A program made the position numbers and the translations under genes. Below, piece by piece: positions 23,161-56,806 of a stretch of 64,000 nucleotides of DNA. A model generated the notes under the pieces. It saw only the letters and a program-made list of their open reading frames with translations. It searched no databases and was not told the DNA's origin. The stretch is from Candidatus Goldiibacteriota bacterium HGW-Goldbacteria-1 (lineage in GTDB: Bacteria; Oederibacteriota; PGYV01). The first letter of the stretch is position 1. The number at the start of each line of letters is the position of its first letter. Location of the stretch: contig PGYV01000001.1 in assembly GCA_002839855.1 (NCBI GenBank), forward strand, positions 229,256-293,255, written 5' to 3'.

Positions 23161-23536
23161 CAGAGGGACGGAAGATAATAAACCGGATGCTTGGACGCTT
23201 AGAGGCTTGGATGCTTGGTTTTGCCGTGGTAGACGCGGGTCTTTAGCCCGCGGTTGTAGCGAGCCTGCGAAGCGGAAATCCCGTCAATGAAGCGAGCTTG
23301 CGAGCGAAAGAAGACGGGACAATTGTGTTTACGTTTTGTTTTGGCAGCCGCGTCCCTTTAGGGCGCGTTGTTCTGCGCGTTTCTTTCAGGTAATTATCAG
23401 GTCAAATGCCGCGCCTTAAAAGGCGCGCCTACCACTGCATAAATTTAAAAAGATCCGCGGGCTAAAGACCCGCGTCTACCAGGTCATAGACTAACTTCAA
23501 CCGCTTAAAGCAAGCCGCAATATATTGCGGCTCTAC
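23161..23536. repeat. REP-like mosaic cluster 1
   Basis: GAGGGACGG head; 8-mer tract 23185-23218; REP-A 23228-23253 and inverted 23455-23480; REP-B variants 23344-23367 and 23410-23434; REP-D 23513-23536. Confidence 0.85.
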
Positions 23537-38695: not shown

Positions 38696-38801
38696 GAAAA
38701 TCCGATTTGTCAAGTTTTTTTGATATTGCAAATTGAAGCGGCAGGATAATAAATAGGACATTTCTATTTTGCGGAAAAGGTAATTAGGGACGGTTTTGCC
38801 T

Positions 38802-39140
38802 TGGTAGACGCGGGTCTTTTAATAACGAGCCTATAATAAAATTGCTCGTTATTATGCGCGGCAGTTGATTTAATACCCAAGACAAAAAGATCCGCAGTGT
38901 AAACGCCCTGTCCGGGGCCTGACCCCGGACAGGGCGTTTAAATACAAAACCAAATATATAAATCTAAACAACGCGCCTTGCCATCTCCGCCATAGCAAAT
39001 TTTTTGCTGCGACGGCCGGGAAAAGGTGCGGCTGCCAAATCCAGATCCAAGTCCAATTCAGAATCAAATGCCGCGGGCTAAAGACCCGCGTCTACCAGGA
39101 CAATACAAATACACGGACAGCGCGGGAGCGCTATCCCTAC
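38802..39140. repeat. REP-like cluster 5
   Basis: Partial REP-A at 38802; 10-bp stem 38821-38853; 18-bp stem hairpin 38900-38940; 83-bp repeat 38960-39042; REP-A 39071-39096; REP-C 39115-39140. Confidence 0.85.
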
Positions 39141-39177
39141 AAAACAAAAACATAAACCTAAACAACGCTTATTGCCT

Positions 39178-41145
39178 TTATATATTCTTTAACCCGCTTA
39201 ACCTTCTTTTTTCCTGCACGTCGTACCTTTTTTCTGCGGCTTTGATTATAAGCCCCAGCATCTGCGAATATGACACATCGTCCATCTTTGACATCTTTGC
39301 TAAGTGGCCGTCCCAGCACCAGCCCGGGTTGGGGTTTACTTCAAGCAGTTTAGGGTTGCCTTTGGAATCCAGCCGCCAGTCAAGGCGCGCGTAATCGCGG
39401 CATTCAAGCCGCTCAAACAGCTTCACGCACCACTCCTGAATATTTTTTTCTGTTTCAGCCGGCAGTTTTGCCGGAATTGTCTTAATGTATTTCCAGTAAG
39501 GGGACGTGGGGTCCCACTTGGCCTCGTACCCGCATATCTTTGGCAGGTCAGGCGGAAGGTCGGAATAGTCCTCTTCGGTAATGGGCATAATGCGGTAGGA
39601 TTCCGGCGGATTGCCGATAATTCCCACTGTGATATCGCTGCCTATTAAGAACTCTTCAACAAGTATGGGTTTTTCATATCCGGTTTTTTCCCGGACATCA
39701 GAAATAGCGCGGTCAAGCTGTTCTAAATTATGCACCACGCTTGTCCTTGTGATGCCAAAACTTGAATCGCCAAAATTGGGTTTTACTATCAGGGGAAAAC
39801 TGAAATTAACCGGAAGTTCGTATGTGATGTCTTCCGGTTTTATAAAGAAAGCTTTGGGGACAGGTATGCCCATTTCCGCGGCTATTCCGCGCACAAGCGA
39901 TTTGTCGTAACAGTAAGCAAGGCACTGCGGCCCGCCGCCCGTATATTTAATATTAAGCATTTCAAAAAACGCCGGCACGTGAAGTTCTTTTCTGGGGTCA
40001 TTGTCATACCCTTCATCGCACAGATTAAGTACAAGGGCGTTATCCTGTGAAACTTTTTTTAAGTCATCAAGAAGATTGGCGTGGTTATCCATAAAAGAAA
40101 ACCTGTACTGCTTTAACCCTGACAGCGCGTCCTTTAACCTGTCTATGGTCTGAAAATCGTCATCATCAAAAACTTCCGAAGGTTTTACACTGTCCGGTTT
40201 CTTAGGGTCGCCCATAACCACAACAACGTCCCTGACCTTGGTATCCTTTGCCTGTTTTTCCGGCGCGCGTTCTTTTTCCACAACAGCGGTCACAATAACG
40301 CGCCTTTCCATCATGCCAAGGTCCTGATTCCGTTTTGATTCCGTATTCATAGCCCCATGAAAATTAATAGCAGAAAGCCCGGCTTTTTTCATTATGAATG
40401 ATATGCTGTCCGCGTTATAAAGCCGCTCCGCGTAAAACTGGTCCACCACCACGCCCTTTTTTGTGTCTGTCACAACCTCGCGTGATATTAAGCGTTCCCC
40501 ATCCGCTGAAAGCGACCGCTCCCTGCAGACAAAGTGTTTCTTGTCTATCCATTCCCAAGACCGCGCGCTGAAGTTCTTTTTTACATAATCCCCGTCCGTT
40601 ACATCTATAAGCACCCGTCCGCCCGGTTTTAAAACCCTTGCGACCTCTTTTAAGACCATTACATCGTCATTTAAAGTTTCAAAATACCCAAAGCTGTTGC
40701 CCAAAAGCATTAACACGTCAAAAGTGTCATTGGAATAAGGTATTTTTCTGGCATCGCCTTCCTTAAATTTAATCGCAAGGTTTTTACCCTTTGATACAGA
40801 TTTTGCCCGCGAAATAAGGTAGTGCGACCTGTCCATTCCCTGCACGTTTTTAAATCCGCGCGAAGCAAGTTCTATTGTGTGGCGCCCCTGCCCGCAGCAA
40901 AGGTCAAGGATACATTCGTCTTTTTTAAGCTTCACAGCGCCGGAAAAAAAGTCTATTTCCTGCTTTGTAATCTGATTATCTTCCACCACATCGCCGTCTG
41001 TCATTATGTAATACGAATTGAAAATGTTCCTCCACCATTCCGGATGGACGTGCTGTTCAAGGTTCTTTACCGGGCCTTTTGTTACTACCCTGTTCTTACT
41101 GCCGTTCTTCCCGTTGATTTTTTCAACAGGCTGCTGTACTTGCAT
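39178..41145 (-). CDS. Class I SAM methyltransferase fused to a D-Ala-D-Ala-ligase-like ATP-grasp domain
   Basis: ILDLCCGQGRH and LLGNSFGYF (MTase); LIVKPNFGDSSFGI, LVEEFL, YARLDWRL and LEVNPNPG (ATP-grasp). Confidence 0.85.
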   Translation of the reverse strand: MQVQQPVEKINGKNGSKNRVVTKGPVKNLEQHVHPEWWRNIFNSYYIMTDGDVVEDNQITKQEIDFFSGAVKLKKDECILDLCCGQGRHTIELASRGFKNVQGMDRSHYLISRAKSVSKGKNLAIKFKEGDARKIPYSNDTFDVLMLLGNSFGYFETLNDDVMVLKEVARVLKPGGRVLIDVTDGDYVKKNFSARSWEWIDKKHFVCRERSLSADGERLISREVVTDTKKGVVVDQFYAERLYNADSISFIMKKAGLSAINFHGAMNTESKRNQDLGMMERRVIVTAVVEKERAPEKQAKDTKVRDVVVVMGDPKKPDSVKPSEVFDDDDFQTIDRLKDALSGLKQYRFSFMDNHANLLDDLKKVSQDNALVLNLCDEGYDNDPRKELHVPAFFEMLNIKYTGGGPQCLAYCYDKSLVRGIAAEMGIPVPKAFFIKPEDITYELPVNFSFPLIVKPNFGDSSFGITRTSVVHNLEQLDRAISDVREKTGYEKPILVEEFLIGSDITVGIIGNPPESYRIMPITEEDYSDLPPDLPKICGYEAKWDPTSPYWKYIKTIPAKLPAETEKNIQEWCVKLFERLECRDYARLDWRLDSKGNPKLLEVNPNPGWCWDGHLAKMSKMDDVSYSQMLGLIIKAAEKRYDVQEKRRLSGLKNI

Positions 41146-41520
41146 AAATCTCCTTTTGGATTATTAGGCATAGCTATAGGTATAAATATAGATAGGCTAC
41201 GCCCGTTTAGGTAAGTGATTGTTTCAAAAAGAAAGGTTGAAGTTTTCCCCGGCTATGGTTCGGGCTGGTTATAAGTTTTTCCCGGTTAATAAATCCCGAC
41301 CATACTATTCGGCTATACTTTTTTCATCTCCAAATTTTTAAGGCATAAACGCCCTGACAAACTGAATTTTAGAACAAATAACGGTTTTGTCAAGGGGGAA
41401 TAATGAGAATAAAAACTATATATGAGGTCTGAAATTTTTATTTACTTTTACTTAGTATCAACTCTCAACTCAAGGTCCGTCCCCTATTACTTATATTAGA
41501 AAGAACTTCCCAGATGTACG

Positions 41521-43110
41521 TTAAGACATAATTTGTTTTGTTACTGGTATTGTAGACCAAACGCCATTAATTAAAACTTGATGGGTCGGCGCAGGGTTCG
41601 TCCAATAGTAATTGAACAATTTAATTATATCCTCTGACTCTGGACTATTTATGTTAATAATTGTAGTTGCACGCTTCCCTAATCCATTAATTGACGTACC
41701 AACTTGCCAAACATTACTATCGTCAACAATTATAAATCTATCATGTATTGGATTATATTGTTTATGTGACAAAGGATGTTGATAGAATATTTTTGCAACT
41801 TCTATTTGTAAATTTGACGACCTCGCAATTACTAAATCATTAGCAAAATCATTATTTACATAAAAAGTTAAAATCATAACCTTTGTGGATGAAGCAATAT
41901 TACTTAAAATATTCCAATCATCAGAACAATTCCCAAAATAAGGGTCAATTATTGAAACTTTTGTATTTGCTTTATCTACAATTGATTGAATTTCCATTAT
42001 GGCTGTCAGTTGGTTACCAGCTTCATATAAAACTTTCTTTTTTGTTAATCGAAGTAAATCTGCTTTCTTTTTTCGCAAAATGCTATTTTTATCTAACTTA
42101 TCACCAACCGAAAAAGTTTTTCGAACTTTTCGACCACCACCATTAATGTCCATTGTATAATGTAGTTCTTCAACATAAGGTTGTTCAGTTGTAAAATCAC
42201 ATATTTTCATGTCGTTTGAAATAAGCATAAAAAATGTTTTATCAACATCATCTGGCAACGGCTGATAAAACATGATTACTTCGTTTTCACTTCCGGTTGG
42301 ATATTTAACATTATCTAATTTATAAATGTTCCAAAGCAAGGTCTCATCAGACCTAGTAAGTTTATAAATAATTGATAATTTATTAATATCCGACTTATTC
42401 TTCGTGGCAATTCCAACTTCTACACGTGTGCCATTATGTTCACTTGGGGTTGTTCCTTTTTCCTTTTTATCACTTAAAAACCAAGCATCAAAATTTGGAA
42501 AATATATGCCAATTGAACCTTTGAGTTCATTAAATTTATCAGCACCTAAAAATCCAATTAAAGAAATTATAGGACTACTTACTTCAATTCCGTTGATTAT
42601 TGCAGTCTCAACTGGTTTTAAAGGCATATAATTCGTTTCATTTGACCACAAAGCAAAAACAGTTGAACTTCTTGCTAAATTACAATTACCAGAACTAAAA
42701 ATACTGTTAAAATGTGAACCAATAACATATTCTTCTTTATGATCAAAATCAATATCATAACTTATAATATTACCTTCAATATCTAAACGCTTTGTTGTTT
42801 CAACTTTTTTCAACAGTTTATAAAATTCTTCAACCGAAAAATGTTTTCGCATTAATAACAAATCATCTCTTAAACAAGTAAATTCTATAATCTTTTTTAC
42901 ATCATCATAATTCAAAATAGGGACAATGATTTGTGTTTTTGAGTACTCATGCCATTCAGGTTCGCCAATTGTAGCGTAAATATCATCAGAAAAAGTAAAC
43001 GAAGTGTAATAGTTTACAAATCCAACTTCGGCTTTTTGGGCTATGCATTTCAGAACAACACCTTTATAATTATTATTTTGACAAATGCTTACAATTTCAT
43101 CCATCATCAT
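41521..43110 (-). CDS. Hypothetical protein with C-terminal PLD-like domain (VPA1262-like)
   Basis: IIDPYFG, IHDRFIIVDD and VGTSINGLG resemble PLD/HKD-variant nuclease motifs; AT-rich; ATGA overlap with the MTase. Confidence 0.55.
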   Translation of the reverse strand: MMMDEIVSICQNNNYKGVVLKCIAQKAEVGFVNYYTSFTFSDDIYATIGEPEWHEYSKTQIIVPILNYDDVKKIIEFTCLRDDLLLMRKHFSVEEFYKLLKKVETTKRLDIEGNIISYDIDFDHKEEYVIGSHFNSIFSSGNCNLARSSTVFALWSNETNYMPLKPVETAIINGIEVSSPIISLIGFLGADKFNELKGSIGIYFPNFDAWFLSDKKEKGTTPSEHNGTRVEVGIATKNKSDINKLSIIYKLTRSDETLLWNIYKLDNVKYPTGSENEVIMFYQPLPDDVDKTFFMLISNDMKICDFTTEQPYVEELHYTMDINGGGRKVRKTFSVGDKLDKNSILRKKKADLLRLTKKKVLYEAGNQLTAIMEIQSIVDKANTKVSIIDPYFGNCSDDWNILSNIASSTKVMILTFYVNNDFANDLVIARSSNLQIEVAKIFYQHPLSHKQYNPIHDRFIIVDDSNVWQVGTSINGLGKRATTIININSPESEDIIKLFNYYWTNPAPTHQVLINGVWSTIPVTKQIMS

Positions 43111-43964
43111 ACAATATCCCGTATAAAATTACTTTTAGGTTTTATTATGTTATCTGAAAAAAACATTATTTCATTTCCAGTTTTCTTTTCACCCGAACTA
43201 TAGTGTAGCTTGTATTTAATACTTTTATAATTGCTATAAATACGCCTTATCTCTTTTACATCATCATAGCTTACTATCCACTTTTGCTCACCCAATCCAA
43301 ATATTTGTTCTGCTATTTGCTTATGGTCTTCTGGTTTATAATAATTCATATAAAGTGAATGTCCTTGAACAAAATATGGTGGATCCAAATACAAAATAGT
43401 CTTCATATCTTTGGATTTTTTAAGTTTTTTTATTAATGTAATCGCATCGCAATTAGATATCTCTATTCGACTTTTATATCTTGCAATTTTCTCTATCCGA
43501 CTTATTAACTCCTTCTTATTAAATCTCGCATCTATTTTCCATTTCCCTTTTTGGTCCGTTCCACCTATGACGCCACCTTTTATAATACCAGACCTATTAG
43601 TCCTATTTAAATAGAATGCTGTAAAACCAAGATTAAGTAATGTATACTCAGAAGGCCTTTTTATTCTTTTATGCATTTTTTTCCATGTTTCAACATTAAC
43701 CTTTGAATCATTTATGAGTTTACAAAGTCTTTCTGTATCGTATAAGACACTATGCCAAAAAGAGTAGATCATATTGTCAAAATCATTTATTACAATCTTC
43801 TTAACATATTCCGAAAATAATAATGATAGGGCAACTGATGCACCGCCAGCATATGGTTCTATATAAGTCCCATCCAAACAACCATTATTGCTAACGATGG
43901 TCTTTATATAATCTGCTATTTTGCCTTTTCCACCTGGATATCTTAACGGGGACAAAAATCGCAT
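43107..43964 (-). CDS. Dam-like DNA adenine methyltransferase
   Basis: SPLRYPGGK, YIEPYAGGASV, LNRTNRSG, YLDPPY and WIVSYDD. Confidence 0.9.
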   Translation of the reverse strand: MRFLSPLRYPGGKGKIADYIKTIVSNNGCLDGTYIEPYAGGASVALSLLFSEYVKKIVINDFDNMIYSFWHSVLYDTERLCKLINDSKVNVETWKKMHKRIKRPSEYTLLNLGFTAFYLNRTNRSGIIKGGVIGGTDQKGKWKIDARFNKKELISRIEKIARYKSRIEISNCDAITLIKKLKKSKDMKTILYLDPPYFVQGHSLYMNYYKPEDHKQIAEQIFGLGEQKWIVSYDDVKEIRRIYSNYKSIKYKLHYSSGEKKTGNEIMFFSDNIIKPKSNFIRDIV

Positions 43965-43965
43965 A

Positions 43966-45300
43966 CTAACACCACAACTTTAAAATAAATGTACTTAAAT
44001 TTTCCCAGCTCTTAATTAGGTCTTTTTCTTTTGGCTGGAAATATCTATTATGAACATAGCCATTAAATGTATCAATTGATATCACGTCATCTTTATCACT
44101 TACCGCAACGCGCAAAGGTTTCAATTCTTTACTTGTCATTATATTTTCTTTACACATATATTCTATGACTTTTGTAATTTTCTCCCGTAATCTTAATTTA
44201 CTTTCTATTTCTTCTTTAGTTCCGATCTTTTTATTACTCATATATTCATCAACACTCATCTCTAAAAAAACCCTAAATAGAATTGCTATTGCGTTTGTAT
44301 ATTTATCGAATTTAAGCGCTTTCAACTCAATAAAAACATCGTTAATTCTTGGCTGTCTTATTTTTAAGACATATCCACTTGGAATTAACTTATTTCTACT
44401 TTTTGTAGACTTTAAAGATCTTGGTATTATCTTTCTTTTATCAACTAAGCTCTCTCCAAGTCCCCAAACCTCTTTGCTTGTTCTTTTAGTATCGGGCTTT
44501 TCTTCCGGAGTAAATTCGTTCAAATATCTTTGTCTATCTTCTTTTTTATATATTTTTTTAACTTTTACTCTTTTATCTATTAAATCTCTTACGATTTTAA
44601 CTAAACCTTTTACTACTTCTTTTTCTTCAACTTTCGATTCAAATAAACCATTTTCAATTTTAATGCCTAAAAATTCTTGAACTTTTTTATCTTCAACAAG
44701 TCTCTCTAAATTCGTTATAGGAATCTTATCAAAGTTTGCTTTTAAAGAATCGTCAACATCATCTCTTTTAGATAAAAAATTTATTATTTGCAAAGATACA
44801 TTCATTTTTCCTTTTGTATGTTCTTCAAATCTACGTTTTTGTTGCGCGTCCCACTCCACAACTCCTTTACCTTCATTTTCGCCAGTATGTTTTAAAACTA
44901 TCCATTTATTTGCATCTTTATATTCATCAAACACAACACAATCTAACGCTTTAATTGGTTTAGCGTTAAATACGGAACTTAATTTTATTATTTTCTTATA
45001 GAAACTTTCATTTTCATTCTTTATTATATCCGGATTAAGTAACAGTTTTAAGGCTACAACACGTCTATTGCCCTCCAGAACCACATATGTGTCTGAATCC
45101 ATTTCAGAAACCATAATGACATCAGATGGGTTAACCCCATTTTCAATTATATCTTTTGAAAGATTTATTATCTTTTTTTCTTGATCATTAACCATTGCAA
45201 TAATGGCATCCCTCTGATTTTCTTTCTGGTCAAATCTGGGATTACCAAGATTTATGGTTAACTTTTCCAATTTTATAGTTTCTCTTCTGTATTCGCCCAT
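43966..45300 (-). CDS. ParB/Srx-like N-terminal domain protein
   Basis: NPRF and VLEGNRRVVALK motifs; helical C-terminal domain with FRVFLE and FNGYVHN. Confidence 0.65.
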   Translation of the reverse strand: MGEYRRETIKLEKLTINLGNPRFDQKENQRDAIIAMVNDQEKKIINLSKDIIENGVNPSDVIMVSEMDSDTYVVLEGNRRVVALKLLLNPDIIKNENESFYKKIIKLSSVFNAKPIKALDCVVFDEYKDANKWIVLKHTGENEGKGVVEWDAQQKRRFEEHTKGKMNVSLQIINFLSKRDDVDDSLKANFDKIPITNLERLVEDKKVQEFLGIKIENGLFESKVEEKEVVKGLVKIVRDLIDKRVKVKKIYKKEDRQRYLNEFTPEEKPDTKRTSKEVWGLGESLVDKRKIIPRSLKSTKSRNKLIPSGYVLKIRQPRINDVFIELKALKFDKYTNAIAILFRVFLEMSVDEYMSNKKIGTKEEIESKLRLREKITKVIEYMCKENIMTSKELKPLRVAVSDKDDVISIDTFNGYVHNRYFQPKEKDLIKSWENLSTFILKLWC

Positions 45301-45301
45301 C

Positions 45302-48244
45302 TTACACCTCCCTATTTTTATTACTAATCACTTTTATCAATTCAACTTCTTCTTGTGAAATCTTATATAACCCATATATTTCTTCATCAATTTTTTGCAT
45401 CACTGAGTCTATTTCTTTGTCAATCTGGTTACCTTGTGCGCCTTTTCTGTTATTATTTAACTGAGAACTCAGTAACAATACTGTTTTAACTAAATCAGAT
45501 ATTCTTTTTTGTCTAACCACCTGAGCTTCATCCTTCTTATCTATAACAAAAATTGGTAGATTTTTTAGAAACATAGTTTTATATATAAAGAATTCATTAG
45601 CTTTTGGCACTGTTGTTTTTTTATAATACCATTCCATTAATCGAGAATTTAGAATACCCAAAATGTAATAAATATCTACGTCGGCTTTTTCCTCAAAGTA
45701 AAAGCCACAAACCGTATCCCCGTAGTAATAACCTTTATCATCAATCATAAATCGGTTTGATTCAGCCAGTTCTGGTACAATAATTTTAATATTGGTAAAA
45801 TTCTTTGTTTTTCTCTGATTCCAAAGTTCATACCATTTTTTTGATGATTTAGTAAAGTATTCTCTCTTGTTAATTTCGGTTTTATTAGATGTTAAAAATT
45901 TATAATAATTTGGAGCTTTAGCTTTTATTTCTTTTTCAGGTATCAAATCATTATTTACATCATATGGATAAAAAACGTATTCGTCTACAGCGTCCAAGTA
46001 GTATTTTCTTATATTTCTGCCTCTTATACATGGTTTTAAAAAAGTTTTTTCGATTTTATTGTTTTTGATTGTTTCCGAATCCAAAAGGTAGATGTCATTT
46101 AAACCGGTGACAATTCCTTCGGTAATATCATCTGTCACTTCAATCAATTTTTTAACATTATCTAATTTATTGATTTTTTCTATTATTTTAGTTTCCAAAG
46201 GATTTCTAAAAATCCATAAACCCTCACCTAATTCTTTTTGTGGATAATATTCAAGCTTCCCATTTAAACCTATTTTGTATTTGAGCATATTGTCTTTAGC
46301 TTTAGATTTTGAAAATATAAATATACCTGTATAATTTAACGCATCTTTAAATATTGATTCATGTTCAAAATCAATAATTTCTTCAACATTGACATTGTTT
46401 AATATATACTTCCTTAATTCAATACCGTGATTGCGTTTCATAAAACCCGTAGGACAAATATATGACATAAGACCATTTTTGTTAATAATTTTTATACCCT
46501 TTTCTATAAATAATACATATATATCAAATTTTCCTTTGGCACTTGAATATACGTCAGTGTAAAACTCCTTTTCCTTTTTGAAACCTTGAAATCCAATATA
46601 CGGAGGGTTGCCGATAACGCAGTCGAATCCACCTTCTGCCATAACCTCTTTATACTGTTCTTCCCAATTAAAAGGTTTTATCTTGTAATAATCATTCCCA
46701 AAGTACCTTGTAAGCAGTAGCGGGTCGCCGGATATAAGGGAGTTGCCGCATTTGATGTTCTGATTAAGCATAGGTAGTACGCCCTGGCCGCCGATAGGCA
46801 CAAATTCCCCTTCAAGCATCTTTAAAACAAGTGAAAGTTTGGTAACTTCCACTGCCTGCTCGTCTAAATCTACGCCAAATATATGCCTTTTTAATATCTC
46901 TGCCTTTTCCGCGATATTCAGCACATCGCCCTGCTGTTTTCCCTGTTCAAATAACTTATCCTGGCTTTGTTTATCTGCTTTTTCTGTGGACTGTTTTCTT
47001 TTTAAATCCCTGTACCAGTTAAGCATTTCTTCATACGCGCGAATAAGAAAGCTGCCCGAACCGCATGCAGGGTCAAGTATTCTTAATTTTTTTATGTCTT
47101 TTTCCTTTAATTCCGCAAGCTTTTTGCCTACTGTATTCTTTACTATATAATCCACAATATACTCAGGCGTGTAATAAACGCCGCCTGCTTTTCTTACGTC
47201 AGGCTTTTCTTCGTACTTTACCTGTTTGTCCGTGACCCTTATTGTGTAACCTAAAAACTGCTCGTAAATATTTCCAAGCACTTCTAACGGTATGGCGTCA
47301 AACTGATATGGGTTATAGGTATCTTCTATTATAGCGTTAAGCGTCTTAAATTCTATTTTAAGGTCTTTTTCCCAGTCCTGCGGGCGGAACAGTTCGCTGT
47401 CAAATATGCGGTTATAAAAGGCAAATTCTTTGTCCAGTATTACCTGCATTGTCCTTGTTCCAAGGCTGTCGCTTCTGTCTTCAAACAGCGCCCTTAAAGA
47501 ATGCCCTGCTACAAGCCCCCTGTCTTCACAGGAACGCATAAATACTATTCGGTCTAAAAGCTTCTGGTTAATTTCTTTTAAGTAGTCCGCGTCACGTTCC
47601 AAATCTCCGGAGTGAAATAAATCCGGGTTGTTTTTGTAGATGTCTTTGGCAAGGTGCTCACGCCAGACTTTAAGGTCATTAAGGACGGCTTTATCTACAG
47701 GAACCCTGTCTTTTGGTTTGGTTGAAAGAAGTTTGTTTAAATCCCCGTTTATAACCGATTCTTTGGAAAGCATCCAAAGGTCATCAAATTTATCTACATA
47801 CTGTTTCCAGTTAAGGTCAAGTTTTATGCCTTTTCTTATGTTTCTTATATCCGGCTTTACTGTTACGTCAAATAACTTAAAGCCTTCAAAATCGGTTAAA
47901 ACCACAAAAGGCACGTCTTTTCTGCTGTACCCGTATCCTATTGCCTGATTAATAAACTTTTTATCTTCAAGGTTTACGCTTACCTGCTTAGCCTCTACAA
48001 AAAATTCCACCCTGCCGTTGTAACGCACAGAATAGTCCACACGCTTGCGGGAAATTGCGTCTTCAAGACAGACTTCATTATGATTGTTTGTATCCCACCC
48101 AAGCAGCCTTAAAAGAGGTTCAATGAAGGTGCTTTTGGTGTTAGCCTCGTTAAGTTCCATGGCTTCGCCGGATTTCATTTCTTTTTCAAATAAATCCACA
48201 AGCTTTTGCAGCTCTTGTTTTGCCTGTTCTTTTGTCAGGTTCAT
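45302..48244 (-). CDS. Type IIG (Eco57I/TaqI-like) fused restriction endonuclease-N6-adenine methyltransferase
   Basis: N-terminal PD-(D/E)xK (VDY...FVEAK), GVYYTP, ILDPACGSGSFL, VIGNPPY, and a TaqI_C-like target recognition domain (YILGILNS.L). Confidence 0.9.
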   Translation of the reverse strand: MNLTKEQAKQELQKLVDLFEKEMKSGEAMELNEANTKSTFIEPLLRLLGWDTNNHNEVCLEDAISRKRVDYSVRYNGRVEFFVEAKQVSVNLEDKKFINQAIGYGYSRKDVPFVVLTDFEGFKLFDVTVKPDIRNIRKGIKLDLNWKQYVDKFDDLWMLSKESVINGDLNKLLSTKPKDRVPVDKAVLNDLKVWREHLAKDIYKNNPDLFHSGDLERDADYLKEINQKLLDRIVFMRSCEDRGLVAGHSLRALFEDRSDSLGTRTMQVILDKEFAFYNRIFDSELFRPQDWEKDLKIEFKTLNAIIEDTYNPYQFDAIPLEVLGNIYEQFLGYTIRVTDKQVKYEEKPDVRKAGGVYYTPEYIVDYIVKNTVGKKLAELKEKDIKKLRILDPACGSGSFLIRAYEEMLNWYRDLKRKQSTEKADKQSQDKLFEQGKQQGDVLNIAEKAEILKRHIFGVDLDEQAVEVTKLSLVLKMLEGEFVPIGGQGVLPMLNQNIKCGNSLISGDPLLLTRYFGNDYYKIKPFNWEEQYKEVMAEGGFDCVIGNPPYIGFQGFKKEKEFYTDVYSSAKGKFDIYVLFIEKGIKIINKNGLMSYICPTGFMKRNHGIELRKYILNNVNVEEIIDFEHESIFKDALNYTGIFIFSKSKAKDNMLKYKIGLNGKLEYYPQKELGEGLWIFRNPLETKIIEKINKLDNVKKLIEVTDDITEGIVTGLNDIYLLDSETIKNNKIEKTFLKPCIRGRNIRKYYLDAVDEYVFYPYDVNNDLIPEKEIKAKAPNYYKFLTSNKTEINKREYFTKSSKKWYELWNQRKTKNFTNIKIIVPELAESNRFMIDDKGYYYGDTVCGFYFEEKADVDIYYILGILNSRLMEWYYKKTTVPKANEFFIYKTMFLKNLPIFVIDKKDEAQVVRQKRISDLVKTVLLLSSQLNNNRKGAQGNQIDKEIDSVMQKIDEEIYGLYKISQEEVELIKVISNKNREV

Positions 48245-48349
48245 GTAGGCTTTGCGCCCTCCCGTTGCTATTTGGTAATTATGGCTATTATAAACCCTGC
48301 CGCGTTTCGCGTCAATTTAAACCACATGATAATAAGTATCAAAATATAC

Positions 48350-48394
48350 TTCTCAACTCAAACCCGGGGTCTGACCCCAAGTTTGAGTTGAGAA
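48350..48394. terminator. Long hairpin with a GGGGTCTGACCCC core after the 48396 stop
   Basis: TTCTCAACTCAAAC / GTTTGAGTTGAGAA 14-bp perfect arms enclosing CC-GGGGTCTGACCCC-AA. Confidence 0.55.
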
Positions 48395-48395
48395 A

Positions 48396-49526
48396 CTAAT
48401 ATTTCTCCAGCCAATTGATCAGCTGTATGTCATGCGGATTTAGTTCTATTGATTTTGTATATGCTTTTTTTGCTTCTGCTTTATTTTCCAGATAAAAATT
48501 ACAATTCCCGATTCTTTTATATACATCAGCCGTCTCCTGAATTAAAGCCGCCTGTTCAAAATACACCAATGCGATTTTATAACGTTTGCGTTCAAACTCT
48601 ATATCGCCTTTTTTCATAAATTCCGTGTATTCACTGTTATCAGAGGGCAGCGCGGGCAACTTTTCTGACTCCGAAATACTTTCGACATCAGAAGGTTCTA
48701 CACCTTCATTTGATAGATTAGAGATTGAATCATCAATATCCTGTGCTACGCCAGACTCTTTTGCTTTTGATTTTCCAAAAGAAAAAGATATTCCGCCATT
48801 AATATACAAACCCGAATAATCAACAGGCTGAACCATAAGGGAGCCGTCTTGAGGGTAATAATAACCGGTTCCCCGGAATATTCCCTCTAAATCACCTTTT
48901 GAATACCTGTACCCCGCTTTAAAATTTAATCCAAAGTTATCATTAAACCAGTAATCTGTGCCCGCTTCAAAACAGGTTCCAAAAAATAAACCAAACGGCG
49001 TAACAGACAGCGTTCCCATTTCATCGCCTGTTGCTGTATATGCATTGCCTTCCACCTGATTTGCAATTGAATACATAATACCAGCATCAAATCCAAGAAA
49101 GAAATTCACCTGTTCATTTTTCCATTTGTCCTGAAAATACTTTCTAAACCCAAGGCCAAAATAATCAGCGCTTAAATTACTTTTCATAGTCAGTAATTCA
49201 TTGGTGCTGTTAGGCCAAAACACTTTACTGTCATTATCCAGAACAATAATGTAATCATTTTTCAAATAAAACGCCCATAAACCGGACGGGCTGTCAAATA
49301 TATAAGCCCCGGCAATGCTTACCAAGCCGCCGGAAGTAATCAGCCTAAAATCCGAAGATGCATTTAAAGATTCAAAACTTTCGTTTTGTTCCTGAGCGTC
49401 TTTGTTGTATTCGGTCATCGCAAGCAGATTAATTCCGCCGTTAATTTCACCAATGCTTTTAATAACTTCTCCAAAAGACATATTTGATAAAAGCAATATT
49501 ACCATTAATAGAAAGATTTTTTTCAC
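48396..49526 (-). CDS. Exported outer-membrane beta-barrel-like protein with C-terminal TPR
   Basis: Signal peptide; FGLNFKAGYRY and LYINGGISFSF strands; TPR YKRIGNCNFYL...YTKSIELNP. Confidence 0.6.
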   Translation of the reverse strand: MKKIFLLMVILLLSNMSFGEVIKSIGEINGGINLLAMTEYNKDAQEQNESFESLNASSDFRLITSGGLVSIAGAYIFDSPSGLWAFYLKNDYIIVLDNDSKVFWPNSTNELLTMKSNLSADYFGLGFRKYFQDKWKNEQVNFFLGFDAGIMYSIANQVEGNAYTATGDEMGTLSVTPFGLFFGTCFEAGTDYWFNDNFGLNFKAGYRYSKGDLEGIFRGTGYYYPQDGSLMVQPVDYSGLYINGGISFSFGKSKAKESGVAQDIDDSISNLSNEGVEPSDVESISESEKLPALPSDNSEYTEFMKKGDIEFERKRYKIALVYFEQAALIQETADVYKRIGNCNFYLENKAEAKKAYTKSIELNPHDIQLINWLEKY

Positions 49527-49878: not shown

Positions 49879-50267
49879 GGCGGCTTGGATGCTTTGAGGC
49901 TTAGAGGCTTGGTAAAAACAACTACAAAGGCCGCGGGCTGAAGACCCGCGTCTACCAGGTCATAAATACAAACTGTGCGATAACAAGACACATTCAAAAC
50001 CCGGACAGCGCGGGAGCGCTATCCCTACAAAAAATTAAGCCAACTACCGCGAACTAAAGACCCGTGTCTGCAACGGCACAAATCTAAACAACGCGCCCTG
50101 CCATCTCCGCCATAACAGTTTTTTGCTGCGACGGCCGGAAAAGGGACGCGGCTACCAATTCCAATTCAAATACGAGCTGCAATACATTGCGGTTCTACAG
50201 GTAAAAACCAGCATCACGCGTCAGAAATGTTCAATGCAAACTTGGGGTATGACCCTAAGTTTGCATT
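49879..50267. repeat. REP-like cluster 6
   Basis: 8-mer tract 49879-49912; REP-A 49931-49956; REP-C 50003-50028; degenerate REP-A at 50047; 83-bp repeat 50080-50162; REP-D 50175-50198; 16-bp hairpin 50233-50267. Confidence 0.85.
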
Positions 50268-51563: not shown

Positions 51564-51729
51564 GAGGGACGGAGGGACGGAGGGACAGTGAAACAGATGT
51601 TTGGATGATTAGATGATTGGAAGGTCGGCAAAGACAATTACAAAAACTAAATCAAATACCGGACAGCGCGGGAGCGCTATCCCTACAAAAACTGAACCAA
51701 CTACCGCGGGCTAAAGACCCGCGTCTACC
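51564..51729. repeat. REP-like cluster 8
   Basis: GAGGGACG repeated three times; 8-mer tract 51595-51628; REP-C 51661-51686; REP-A 51704-51729. Confidence 0.85.
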
Positions 51730-51773
51730 AAGACAAAAATACAATCTGTGCGATAACAAATACAAATCACCCA

Positions 51774-53207: not shown

Positions 53208-53240
53208 ATTATCTCCATAAGTTATATTATTTTATTACCC

Positions 53241-53303
53241 GGACGGTGCGGTAGCGCCGTCCCTGCAAAAACAAAAACCGCGGGCCGAATACCCGCGTCT
53301 ACC
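53241..53303. repeat. REP-like cluster 9
   Basis: REP-C variant GGACGGTGCGGTAGCGCCGTCCCTGC at 53241-53266; REP-A variant at 53278-53303. Confidence 0.75.
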
Positions 53304-53385
53304 AATTCCAAAAATTCTATCCCATAAATGAAAACATTATTAAGACAAAAGCCAAACCTGCCAAGGCATAATACCTGTCTCATAA

Positions 53386-56564: not shown

Positions 56565-56653
56565 TTCCCCTCCAACAACGTTATTCAAAGTAAACAGTTT
56601 TATGTTCACTTTCCGTATTCTATAGATTTTTTTATTAAAAACCAGAACAAAGG

Positions 56654-56806
56654 CCGCGGGCTGAAGACCCGCGTCTACCAGATCAAATTCCAATACCGGA
56701 TCAAAATCAACTGCCGCGCCCTAAAGGGACGCGCCTACCAGATCCAGTTACAATTTAAAATCAAGTGCGAGGCTCAAGTGCGAGGCGTAATGTATTACGC
56801 CTCTAC
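56654..56806. repeat. REP-like cluster 11
   Basis: REP-A 56654-56679; REP-B 56714-56739; 13-bp tandem TCAAGTGCGAGGC; REP-D 56782-56806. Confidence 0.85.

Follow-up and report, generated by a model that had tools for sequence, protein, structure and literature searches.

A restriction-modification (R-M) gene of Candidatus Goldiibacteriota bacterium HGW-Goldbacteria-1 changes abruptly in base composition at the codons of its methyltransferase motif NPPY. The gene lies on the minus strand at 45302–48244 of the stretch of DNA analysed here, 64,000 nucleotides (nt) of contig PGYV01000001.1 (positions 229,256–293,255; hereafter the window). Comparison with other strains and with homologous loci indicates that the break is probably the boundary between two evolutionary modules of a Type IIG gene, and that the locus is probably a variable defence slot with two tiers, located downstream of a resident promoter and N-terminal (N) module. 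In the mechanism that we propose, the N module, with its promoter, a PD-(D/E)XK nuclease and methyltransferase motifs X–IV up to the Tyr of NPPY, would be resident and inherited together with the flanking core genes. The C-terminal (C) module, with motifs V–VIII and a TaqI_C-type target recognition domain (TRD), would be one allele of a large, AT-rich and horizontally circulating pool. C modules would be exchanged by recombination, the left joint lying in a ~33-nt block at motif IV (GFDxVIGNPPY). From the end of the open reading frame (ORF; 45331/45332) to a fixed boundary at 41405–41410, a second variable segment would be exchanged independently.

Architecture of the R-M gene

The ORF encodes 980 amino acids (aa) and is intact and in frame. 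Its product matches the Pfam families HSDR_N (aa 57–131), N6_Mtase/Eco57I/MmeI_Mtase (aa 322–655) and TaqI_C (aa 738–898), and the PADLOC model REase_MTase_IIG over aa 7–968 (4.5e-172). The catalytic motifs could be read from the translation, with motif I (DPACGSGSF) at ~aa 391–399 and motif IV (NPPY) at aa 546–549; a nuclease motif, VDYS...VEFFVEAKQ (D-x11-EAK), is located inside the HSDR_N match. The protein is predicted to be a single-chain Type IIG R-M enzyme, Eco57I-like, that combines a nuclease, a gamma-class N6-adenine methyltransferase and a TRD. In Type IIG enzymes, one TRD serves both cleavage and methylation.

The N module occupies 46598–48244 (minus strand; aa 1–549) and contains the PD-(D/E)XK nuclease (HSDR_N) and motifs X and I–IV, with a GC content of 0.408 and a GC content at third codon positions (GC3) of 0.43. 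Its last four codons, AAC CCT CCG TAT (46598–46609, minus strand), encode NPPY and form the module joint. The C module, here termed allele A (45332–46597, minus strand; GC 0.274, GC3 0.23), contains motifs V–VIII and the TRD. The ORF closes with a tail of nine codons, VISNKNREV, and a stop (45302–45331, minus strand), read directly from the sequence, which forms the left end of the cargo segment and holds the Shine-Dalgarno sequence AGGGAGGTG of the next gene, PD-lambda-5 A. Residues 539–614 align to TaqI 98–181, and residues 539–918 to residues 158–550 of the CamA chain (1.3e-42). By these alignments, the NPPY joint sits inside the predicted catalytic Rossmann fold and not at a domain border; the NPPY of M.TaqI comprises residues 105–108, within the catalytic domain.

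Identity to a sister strain ends at the NPPY tyrosine codon

In a protein search, the N half (aa 1–549) was 98.5% identical to one protein, P0007, and at most 66% identical to all other relatives. Beyond aa 549, P0007 gave no match to the C half of the window protein and is unrelated to it. The best relatives of the C half form another set (P0106, P0086, P0008, P0042, P0070 and P0126), with identities of only 51–60%, and the C-half search returned no donor candidate closer than 60%.

The contig encoding P0007 (L013) is syntenic with the window, and the flanking genes are 86–92% identical in nucleotide sequence. Window positions 48348–46598 align to L013 with 93.8% nucleotide identity; the alignment stops at 46598, the final base of the Tyr codon, and past that codon no alignment is possible. 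Mismatches in the N half are evenly spread, at 3–11 per 100 nt, up to the joint, which argues that no donor tract lies upstream of NPPY. Behind its unrelated specificity half, L013 carries a different cargo, a TrlF-family PHP/AAA ATPase related to Ppl. A preliminary description of this DNA had proposed that the R-M gene is a recombinant with its joint at motif IV. The distinct nearest relatives of the two halves and the end of L013 identity at the Tyr codon support this proposal, and L013 provides the different TRD and cargo behind a near-identical 5′ half that such a history would leave in another strain.

As the genome is an 18-contig bin assembled from a metagenome, and many organisms that occur together carry conserved N halves, an assembly chimera of two organisms joined at the conserved NPPY region had to be considered. 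We give this explanation next to no credence. Logan contigs of two runs span 40500–49500 and 40809–47503 without a single difference and at even depth; the window itself may, however, come from the samples of these runs. A strain from another study (X5, described below) crosses the joint within a 1704-nt contig at 94% identity. Furthermore, the AT-rich block has host sequence on either side, and in G002, a second species of the genus, these two flanks are neighbours; the ORF is also intact and in frame.

The composition break coincides with the joint

In 300-nt sliding windows, GC content is ~0.40–0.43 at 46650–48300, 0.26–0.31 from ~46350 to ~41400, and 0.40–0.49 beyond. Per 30 codons of the R-M gene, GC3 drops from ~0.43 to ~0.2 between aa 541–570 and aa 571–600. 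The maximum-likelihood GC change point within the gene is 46533 (5′ side 0.406, 3′ side 0.269, log-likelihood ratio 30), 65 nt beyond the NPPY codons (46609–46598), and the lower change point of the AT-rich block is 41314. Within the resolution of a composition statistic, the drop starts at NPPY; the comparative data put the junction at 46598/46597. With a GC content of 0.292, block 41411–46597 is the most AT-rich 5-kb stretch of the genome: among the 1118 5-kb windows of the 2.86-Mb genome (mean 0.421, standard deviation 0.026), 0 are at or below 0.29.

The preliminary GC values had been counted by hand, and they and their coordinates were essentially right. Both the sliding window and the change point recover the sharp break in the gene, GC3 falls together with GC across NPPY (0.43 to 0.23), and the AT-rich composition continues, as had been described, through the TRD and the next three genes, the low-GC block reaching ~41410.

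The low GC of the 3′ half by itself is no mark of recent capture, because it is family-wide and common to strains 6% apart. Of 31 homologous loci taken from genomes and metagenomes, 30 have a higher GC content before NPPY than after it (mean difference +0.10; GC3 +0.14), and the 3′ half of L013 is AT-rich too (GC 0.42 to 0.29). Downstream of the R-M genes of homologous loci, GC is low in some and host-like in others. That the shift has the same direction in 30 of 31 family members, whatever the GC of the host, would also fit an origin without recombination, in which the 3′ half became AT-rich through fast TRD evolution under AT-biased mutation or through a skewed amino-acid composition. Such an origin is very improbable, as synonymous GC3 falls as well, L013 is 94% identical in nucleotide sequence as far as the Tyr codon and unalignable beyond it, and the family contains both pairs with near-identical C halves on dissimilar N halves and a nearly random distribution of C classes on the N-half tree, as described in the next section.

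Similarity breaks recur at NPPY across the family

Among the retrieved proteins, we defined mosaic pairs as those with N halves at least 88% identical and C halves below 45% (n = 72). Their maximum-likelihood breakpoint lies at offset −1 or 0 from the Tyr in 52 of the 72 pairs and between −1 and +8 in 63; the remaining breakpoints cluster at the CGNSLISG motif. Minor breakpoints were seen at CGNSLISG, ~38–47 aa before NPPY, at FGVDIDxxAVE and at GIYYTP (for example, P0009 pairs, P0204/P0211, P0015/P0040 and P0220/P0238). At least 12 locus pairs lose nucleotide homology 0–2 nt from the end of the NPPY codons. The converse combination also occurs: P0204 and P0211 have C halves 94.7% identical on N halves of only 32% identity, and the joints of such pairs lie at NPPY or at other conserved motifs.

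In 30 non-redundant loci, codon positions 1 and 2 are conserved at 0.83–1.0 over the 33 nt encoding GFDxVIGNPPY and at 0.4–0.5 right after it, NPPY being the last nucleotide-conserved block across these loci. Homology of the variable part never resumes inside the gene, and variability extends from NPPY to the ORF end; hence, the TRD is not flanked on both sides by conserved motifs within the gene. A second, independent pair of loci, L028 and L029, shares flank and N half (93.3% identical up to 2 nt before the NPPY end) and differs in C half and cargo, which comprises an AbiJ-like gene, a 129-aa ORF and a TPR-HEPN gene in L028, and a 514-aa ORF and a YhcG/PDC-S02 nuclease gene in L029. When 50 C-module classes are mapped onto an N-half tree of 114 proteins, 92 changes are counted (minimum 49; shuffled labels 100.6 ± 1.8), suggesting that C modules reassort in a manner close to free over the tree.

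These data suggest how the exchange may proceed. The joint would be set by DNA conservation, motif IV being the last stretch in which short-homology or homologous pairing is possible. Selection would retain functional in-frame chimeras, in which motifs V–VIII travel with their own TRD. Because the recognition domain is C-terminal, the right joint would lie at or past the gene end, and a second crossover at or past the stop codon would make the 3′ flank a slot for cassette replacement. One C-module swap would then change cleavage and methylation specificity together.

Recombination of this kind could also be programmed, as a shufflon or phase variation that switches the TRD from silent cassettes by a site-specific recombinase. 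TRD-switching systems exist for some pglX genes. A precedent is also found in the Type I hsdS genes of Mycoplasma pulmonis (cited in PMC3077401). At the present locus, programmed switching is scarcely credible. Between 41 and 49 kb, the joint is not repeated in inverted orientation and no part of the gene is present a second time, the R-M protein has a single match in the genome, the two Tyr recombinases of the genome are both on other contigs with no Ser recombinase, and a single arrangement is seen in contigs from four runs of the source study. Inversion and silent cassettes were therefore rejected, given that no inverted repeats or partial copies lie nearby and the genome has one copy of the gene. 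Likewise, we found no local recombinase, integrase or mobile-element hallmarks at the locus.

The cargo as a probable second exchangeable segment

X5 is a run from another study, whose Logan contigs represent a strain ~6% diverged from the window. They cover 45332–48200, which includes the N half and the same C half, allele A. The N half is ~94% identical to that of the window and the C module ~93–94%, and divergence is alike in both halves, with 102 differences in 1704 nt on the N side and 24/395, 14/291 and 30/408 on the C side. Homology stops at 45332, a codon boundary, where X5 has TAG and the window reads nine more codons. After the conserved EEIKIIE helix, the tail of the R-M protein has 3–5 residues in relatives, 9 in the window and 0 in X5. 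The PD-lambda-5 and phospholipase D (PLD)-like cargo is absent from X5; on the other side, the flank of X5 matches the window up to 41405 and then continues with different sequence. Another run, X9, likewise leaves the flank at 41405, with yet another sequence. A k-mer search of runs detected the cargo in the source study only, and the C half also in X5.

Because X5 has the same N and C halves without the cargo, the C module and the cargo appear to be separate exchangeable segments. The AT-rich block would accordingly comprise at least two independently exchangeable pieces, the C module at 45332–46597 and the cargo at 41406/41411–45331, and the left junction of the cargo would be the end of the R-M ORF, not NPPY. 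Close strains show three states: allele A is found both with and without the cargo, and allele B with other cargo. The preliminary description had envisaged a capture of the TRD and three cargo genes in one event at NPPY, which is unsupported as stated. Its image of the 5′ half as a landing pad for defence cassettes survives in part: different TRDs and cargo do lie behind the resident 5′ half, but they need not move together.

A single capture could be reconciled with X5 if the C module entered together with the three cargo genes, in one event whose left joint lay at NPPY, and the X5 lineage later lost or replaced the cargo at the ORF end. The composition of the block is uniform over its four segments (GC3 0.23, 0.22, 0.25 and 0.20; tetranucleotide r 0.85–0.91), the genes are closely spaced and no promoter inside the block is stronger than that of the R-M gene, and C half and cargo differ at once in L013 as well as between L028 and L029. 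We nevertheless regard a single event as unlikely, while taking it seriously. C half A of X5 is as diverged as the N half (~6%), lacks the cargo and has its own stop exactly at the break. The nine-codon tail is the ribosome-binding leader of PD-lambda-5 A, as expected for a cassette fused to an existing gene end; the leaders of PD-lambda-5 at other loci lack a Shine-Dalgarno sequence and say nothing about the origin of the tail. In addition, PD-lambda-5 A and B stand alone in four contexts, never beside a Type IIG or PLD gene. Finally, AT-richness is typical of C modules and defence cargo, so that a like composition is weak evidence of co-transfer. A conserved four-gene operon was rejected on the same two grounds, the four PD-lambda-5 contexts without Type IIG and PLD genes and the lack of cargo in X5.

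Several points weigh against the two-module, two-tier interpretation. The X5 evidence consists of short Logan contigs with 30-nt loose ends. The nearest C-half relatives are only 51–60% identical and those of PD-lambda-5 A at most 47%, so that the direction and timing of events are reconstructed without a donor. The joint lies inside the catalytic Rossmann domain according to the TaqI alignment, and the function of a chimera joined there is assumed. If donors had the conserved N half in common, crossovers at any point within it could also produce a sharp boundary at NPPY, and the crossover site is itself read from a similarity boundary. Moreover, the 72 mosaic pairs share sequences and are not independent events, and the N-half tree is a FastTree of sequences picked by N-half similarity.

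A resident promoter and fixed slot edges

The preliminary description had taken the 5′ half to be resident, and G002 bears this out. This second species retains the P0005 gene and its upstream region to window position 41410 at 90.6% identity, as well as the R-M promoter and the first 19 codons at 84.5% identity. Between the two retained parts lies an unrelated AT-rich lipoprotein gene. On the G002 contig (L024; G002:C130, 979–2386), the promoter and 19 codons run into this gene, which encodes a 393-aa lipoprotein-like protein. The arrangement looks like promoter capture after loss of the R-M gene.

The predicted resident promoter is of the sigma-70 type (TTGACG-17-TATAAT, 48287–48315, minus strand); with 11/12 matches it is the best promoter-like site of the region, and it is conserved in the window, L013 and G002. 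The upstream edge of the slot is marked by a repetitive extragenic palindrome (REP)-like hairpin with a terminator-like site (48350–48394, minus strand; 22-nt arms, 91% complementary), and L013 homology resumes at 48348, right beside it.

The other edge lies in the conserved downstream flank (41366–41410, minus strand), which contains the slot boundary at 41405–41410 and the predicted promoter of the next resident gene (TTGACA-16-TAAAAT, 41393–41366, 11/12 matches). The window, X5, X9 and G002 share this flank and each then continues differently, homology ending at 41410 in G002 and at 41405 in X5 and X9. The boundary is located 12–17 nt upstream of the −35 box of that promoter; no repeat or recognisable site was seen at 41405–41410.

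Comparison with known systems

TRDs are known to move by recombination at the DNA for conserved methyltransferase motifs in the Type III mod genes of Helicobacter pylori (Furuta and Kobayashi; PMC3575425), and domain movement (DoMo) has been described in Type I and Type IIG S genes (PMC3077401). The present locus resembles these cases in that specificity domains are shared by dissimilar backbones, different TRDs occur on the same backbone (P0001/P0007), joints coincide with the DNA of conserved motifs (here NPPY, with CGNSLISG, FGVDID and GIYYTP as minor ones) and no dedicated recombinase is needed. In contrast to them, the TRD here is C-terminal in a single-chain R-M-S enzyme, with a conserved motif on one side only and the other joint outside the gene, and the exchanged unit includes half of the catalytic domain (motifs V–VIII). 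The pattern extends across many uncultivated lineages rather than within one species, and the 3′ flank doubles as a cargo slot. Unlike phase-variable or shufflon switching, the locus has no silent cassettes, joint inverted repeats or local site-specific recombinase.

The enzyme shares with Eco57I, BpuSI and MmeI-type Type IIG proteins a single chain in which a PD-(D/E)XK nuclease stands at the N terminus, followed by a gamma-class N6-adenine methyltransferase with NPPY and, at the C terminus, a TRD (BpuSI structure, PMC3185434). It differs from them in being known from sequence alone, and its nearest solved relatives, CamA and TaqI, cover the C part only. Like defence islands and hotspots, the locus is a fixed slot between conserved flanks, whose contents are PD-lambda-5 and PLD genes, a TrlF-like gene or none, depending on the strain. 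Unlike them, it has one slot border inside or at the end of an R-M gene and no integrase, and its cargo appears to be expressed from the promoter of that gene.

In E. coli, PD-lambda-5 has been validated experimentally as an anti-phage system of broad range, and it has been described as R-M and abortive infection (Abi) compacted into one system (PMC9519451; Vassallo et al. 2022). As in E. coli, the window genes form a pair of A (ParB-like) and B (D12) with a 1-nt spacer. In contrast to the E. coli system, the pair here is joined to the end of a Type IIG ORF, with a PLD-like gene after it, and is at most 47% identical to any relative found.

Four features are new here: a joint that is codon-precise and one-sided, within a single-chain enzyme; a swapped unit that takes in half a catalytic domain; reassortment close to random over a very large environmental family; and the link to a cargo slot downstream. 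Literature searches turned up no account of them. We advance more tentatively a wider generalization, which may well not hold as a whole: that the NPPY block is a family-wide, codon-precise recombination joint with near-free reassortment, that the 3′ flank, lying behind a swapped half that is C-terminal, is a promoter-equipped slot for the exchange of unrelated defence cassettes, and that this is a general way, without recombinases, to build and renew defence islands around an R-M anchor.

If these readings are correct, they provide single-nucleotide evidence that a one-polypeptide R-M enzyme shifts the specificities of cleavage and protection together by module exchange, at a point determined by where the coding DNA is most conserved, not by where protein domains meet. 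They would explain the foreign look of the 3′ halves of these genes in every host, and suggest how defence genes gather and turn over beside R-M genes without integrases. They would also yield a design rule for Type IIG, BREX PglX-like and CamA-like specificities, namely to join at NPPY. The three allele and cargo states in close strains make the process testable in population metagenomes.

Cargo genes

The first cargo gene, PD-lambda-5 A (43966–45300, minus strand), encodes a ParB/sulfiredoxin-like protein of 444 aa (PADLOC PD-Lambda-5_A, PDLC03998, 1.2e-148), and the second, PD-lambda-5 B (43107–43964, minus strand), a D12-class Dam-like adenine methyltransferase of 285 aa (PD-Lambda-5_B, PDLC04018, 5.3e-121; Pfam MethyltransfD12, 2.8e-22). 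As adjacent genes, A and B match both family models and are predicted to form a PD-lambda-5 system. Homologues of A are at most 47% identical, and the search gave nothing closer as a donor; A and B occur as stand-alone pairs in four other contexts, with no Type IIG or PLD gene nearby. The arrangement of A and B with a 1-nt spacer is the same in L062–L064.

The third gene (41521–43110, minus strand) encodes a 529-aa protein with a putative PLD-like C-terminal domain (PDC-S05/VPA1262-like). It matches PADLOC PDC-S05 at aa 357–497 (4.4e-15) and NCBIfam VPA1262_N_dom at 3.1e-17, under the curated cut-off; no Pfam or PDB match was found, and the function label rests on these weak PADLOC and NCBIfam matches. 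The cargo is tightly packed, with 1-nt spacers and with the start of the 529-aa gene overlapping the stop of gene B (ATGA), and a promoter scan revealed no site inside it stronger than the R-M promoter. Because the genes are packed without promoters of their own, the cargo is most likely transcribed from the resident R-M promoter.

The right-hand tail of the cargo (41406–41520, minus strand) holds a 36-nt repeated motif at 41454–41489 (TAATAGGGGACGGACCTTGAGTTGAGAG...). Four further copies are present in the genome, all intergenic, on contig C15 (43–62 kb), and unrelated contigs from other metagenomes (X9, X13) carry near-identical ones. The motif resembles the 3′ arm of the REP-like hairpin at 48350–48394, without a partner arm.

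Flanking genes and other observations

The slot is flanked by resident genes for a TPR protein (48396–49526) and a methyltransferase/D-Ala-D-Ala-ligase-like protein (39178–41145). Beside the REP-like hairpin, L013 carries an extra AT-rich insert of 1.3 kb (L013 6853–8188, between the equivalents of window positions 48393 and 48348). Its genes encode a SocA_Panacea-domain protein and a 143-aa partner, a toxin-antitoxin-like pair, and the insert site, upstream of the R-M promoter, appears to be a second small variable slot.

In another comparison of close strains (L035 and L037), the upstream flank is 98.6% identical and the R-M N half only 86.5%, which suggests that replacement between close strains extends to the N module as well.

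Short cross-matches of the window to L013 and G002 revealed a multi-copy intergenic repeat family of ~40–80 nt. Its positions in the window are 23219–23257, 32780–32852, 37554–37930, 38736–38794, 39061–39144, 49911–49994, 51703–51739, 53239–53339 and 56644–56710.

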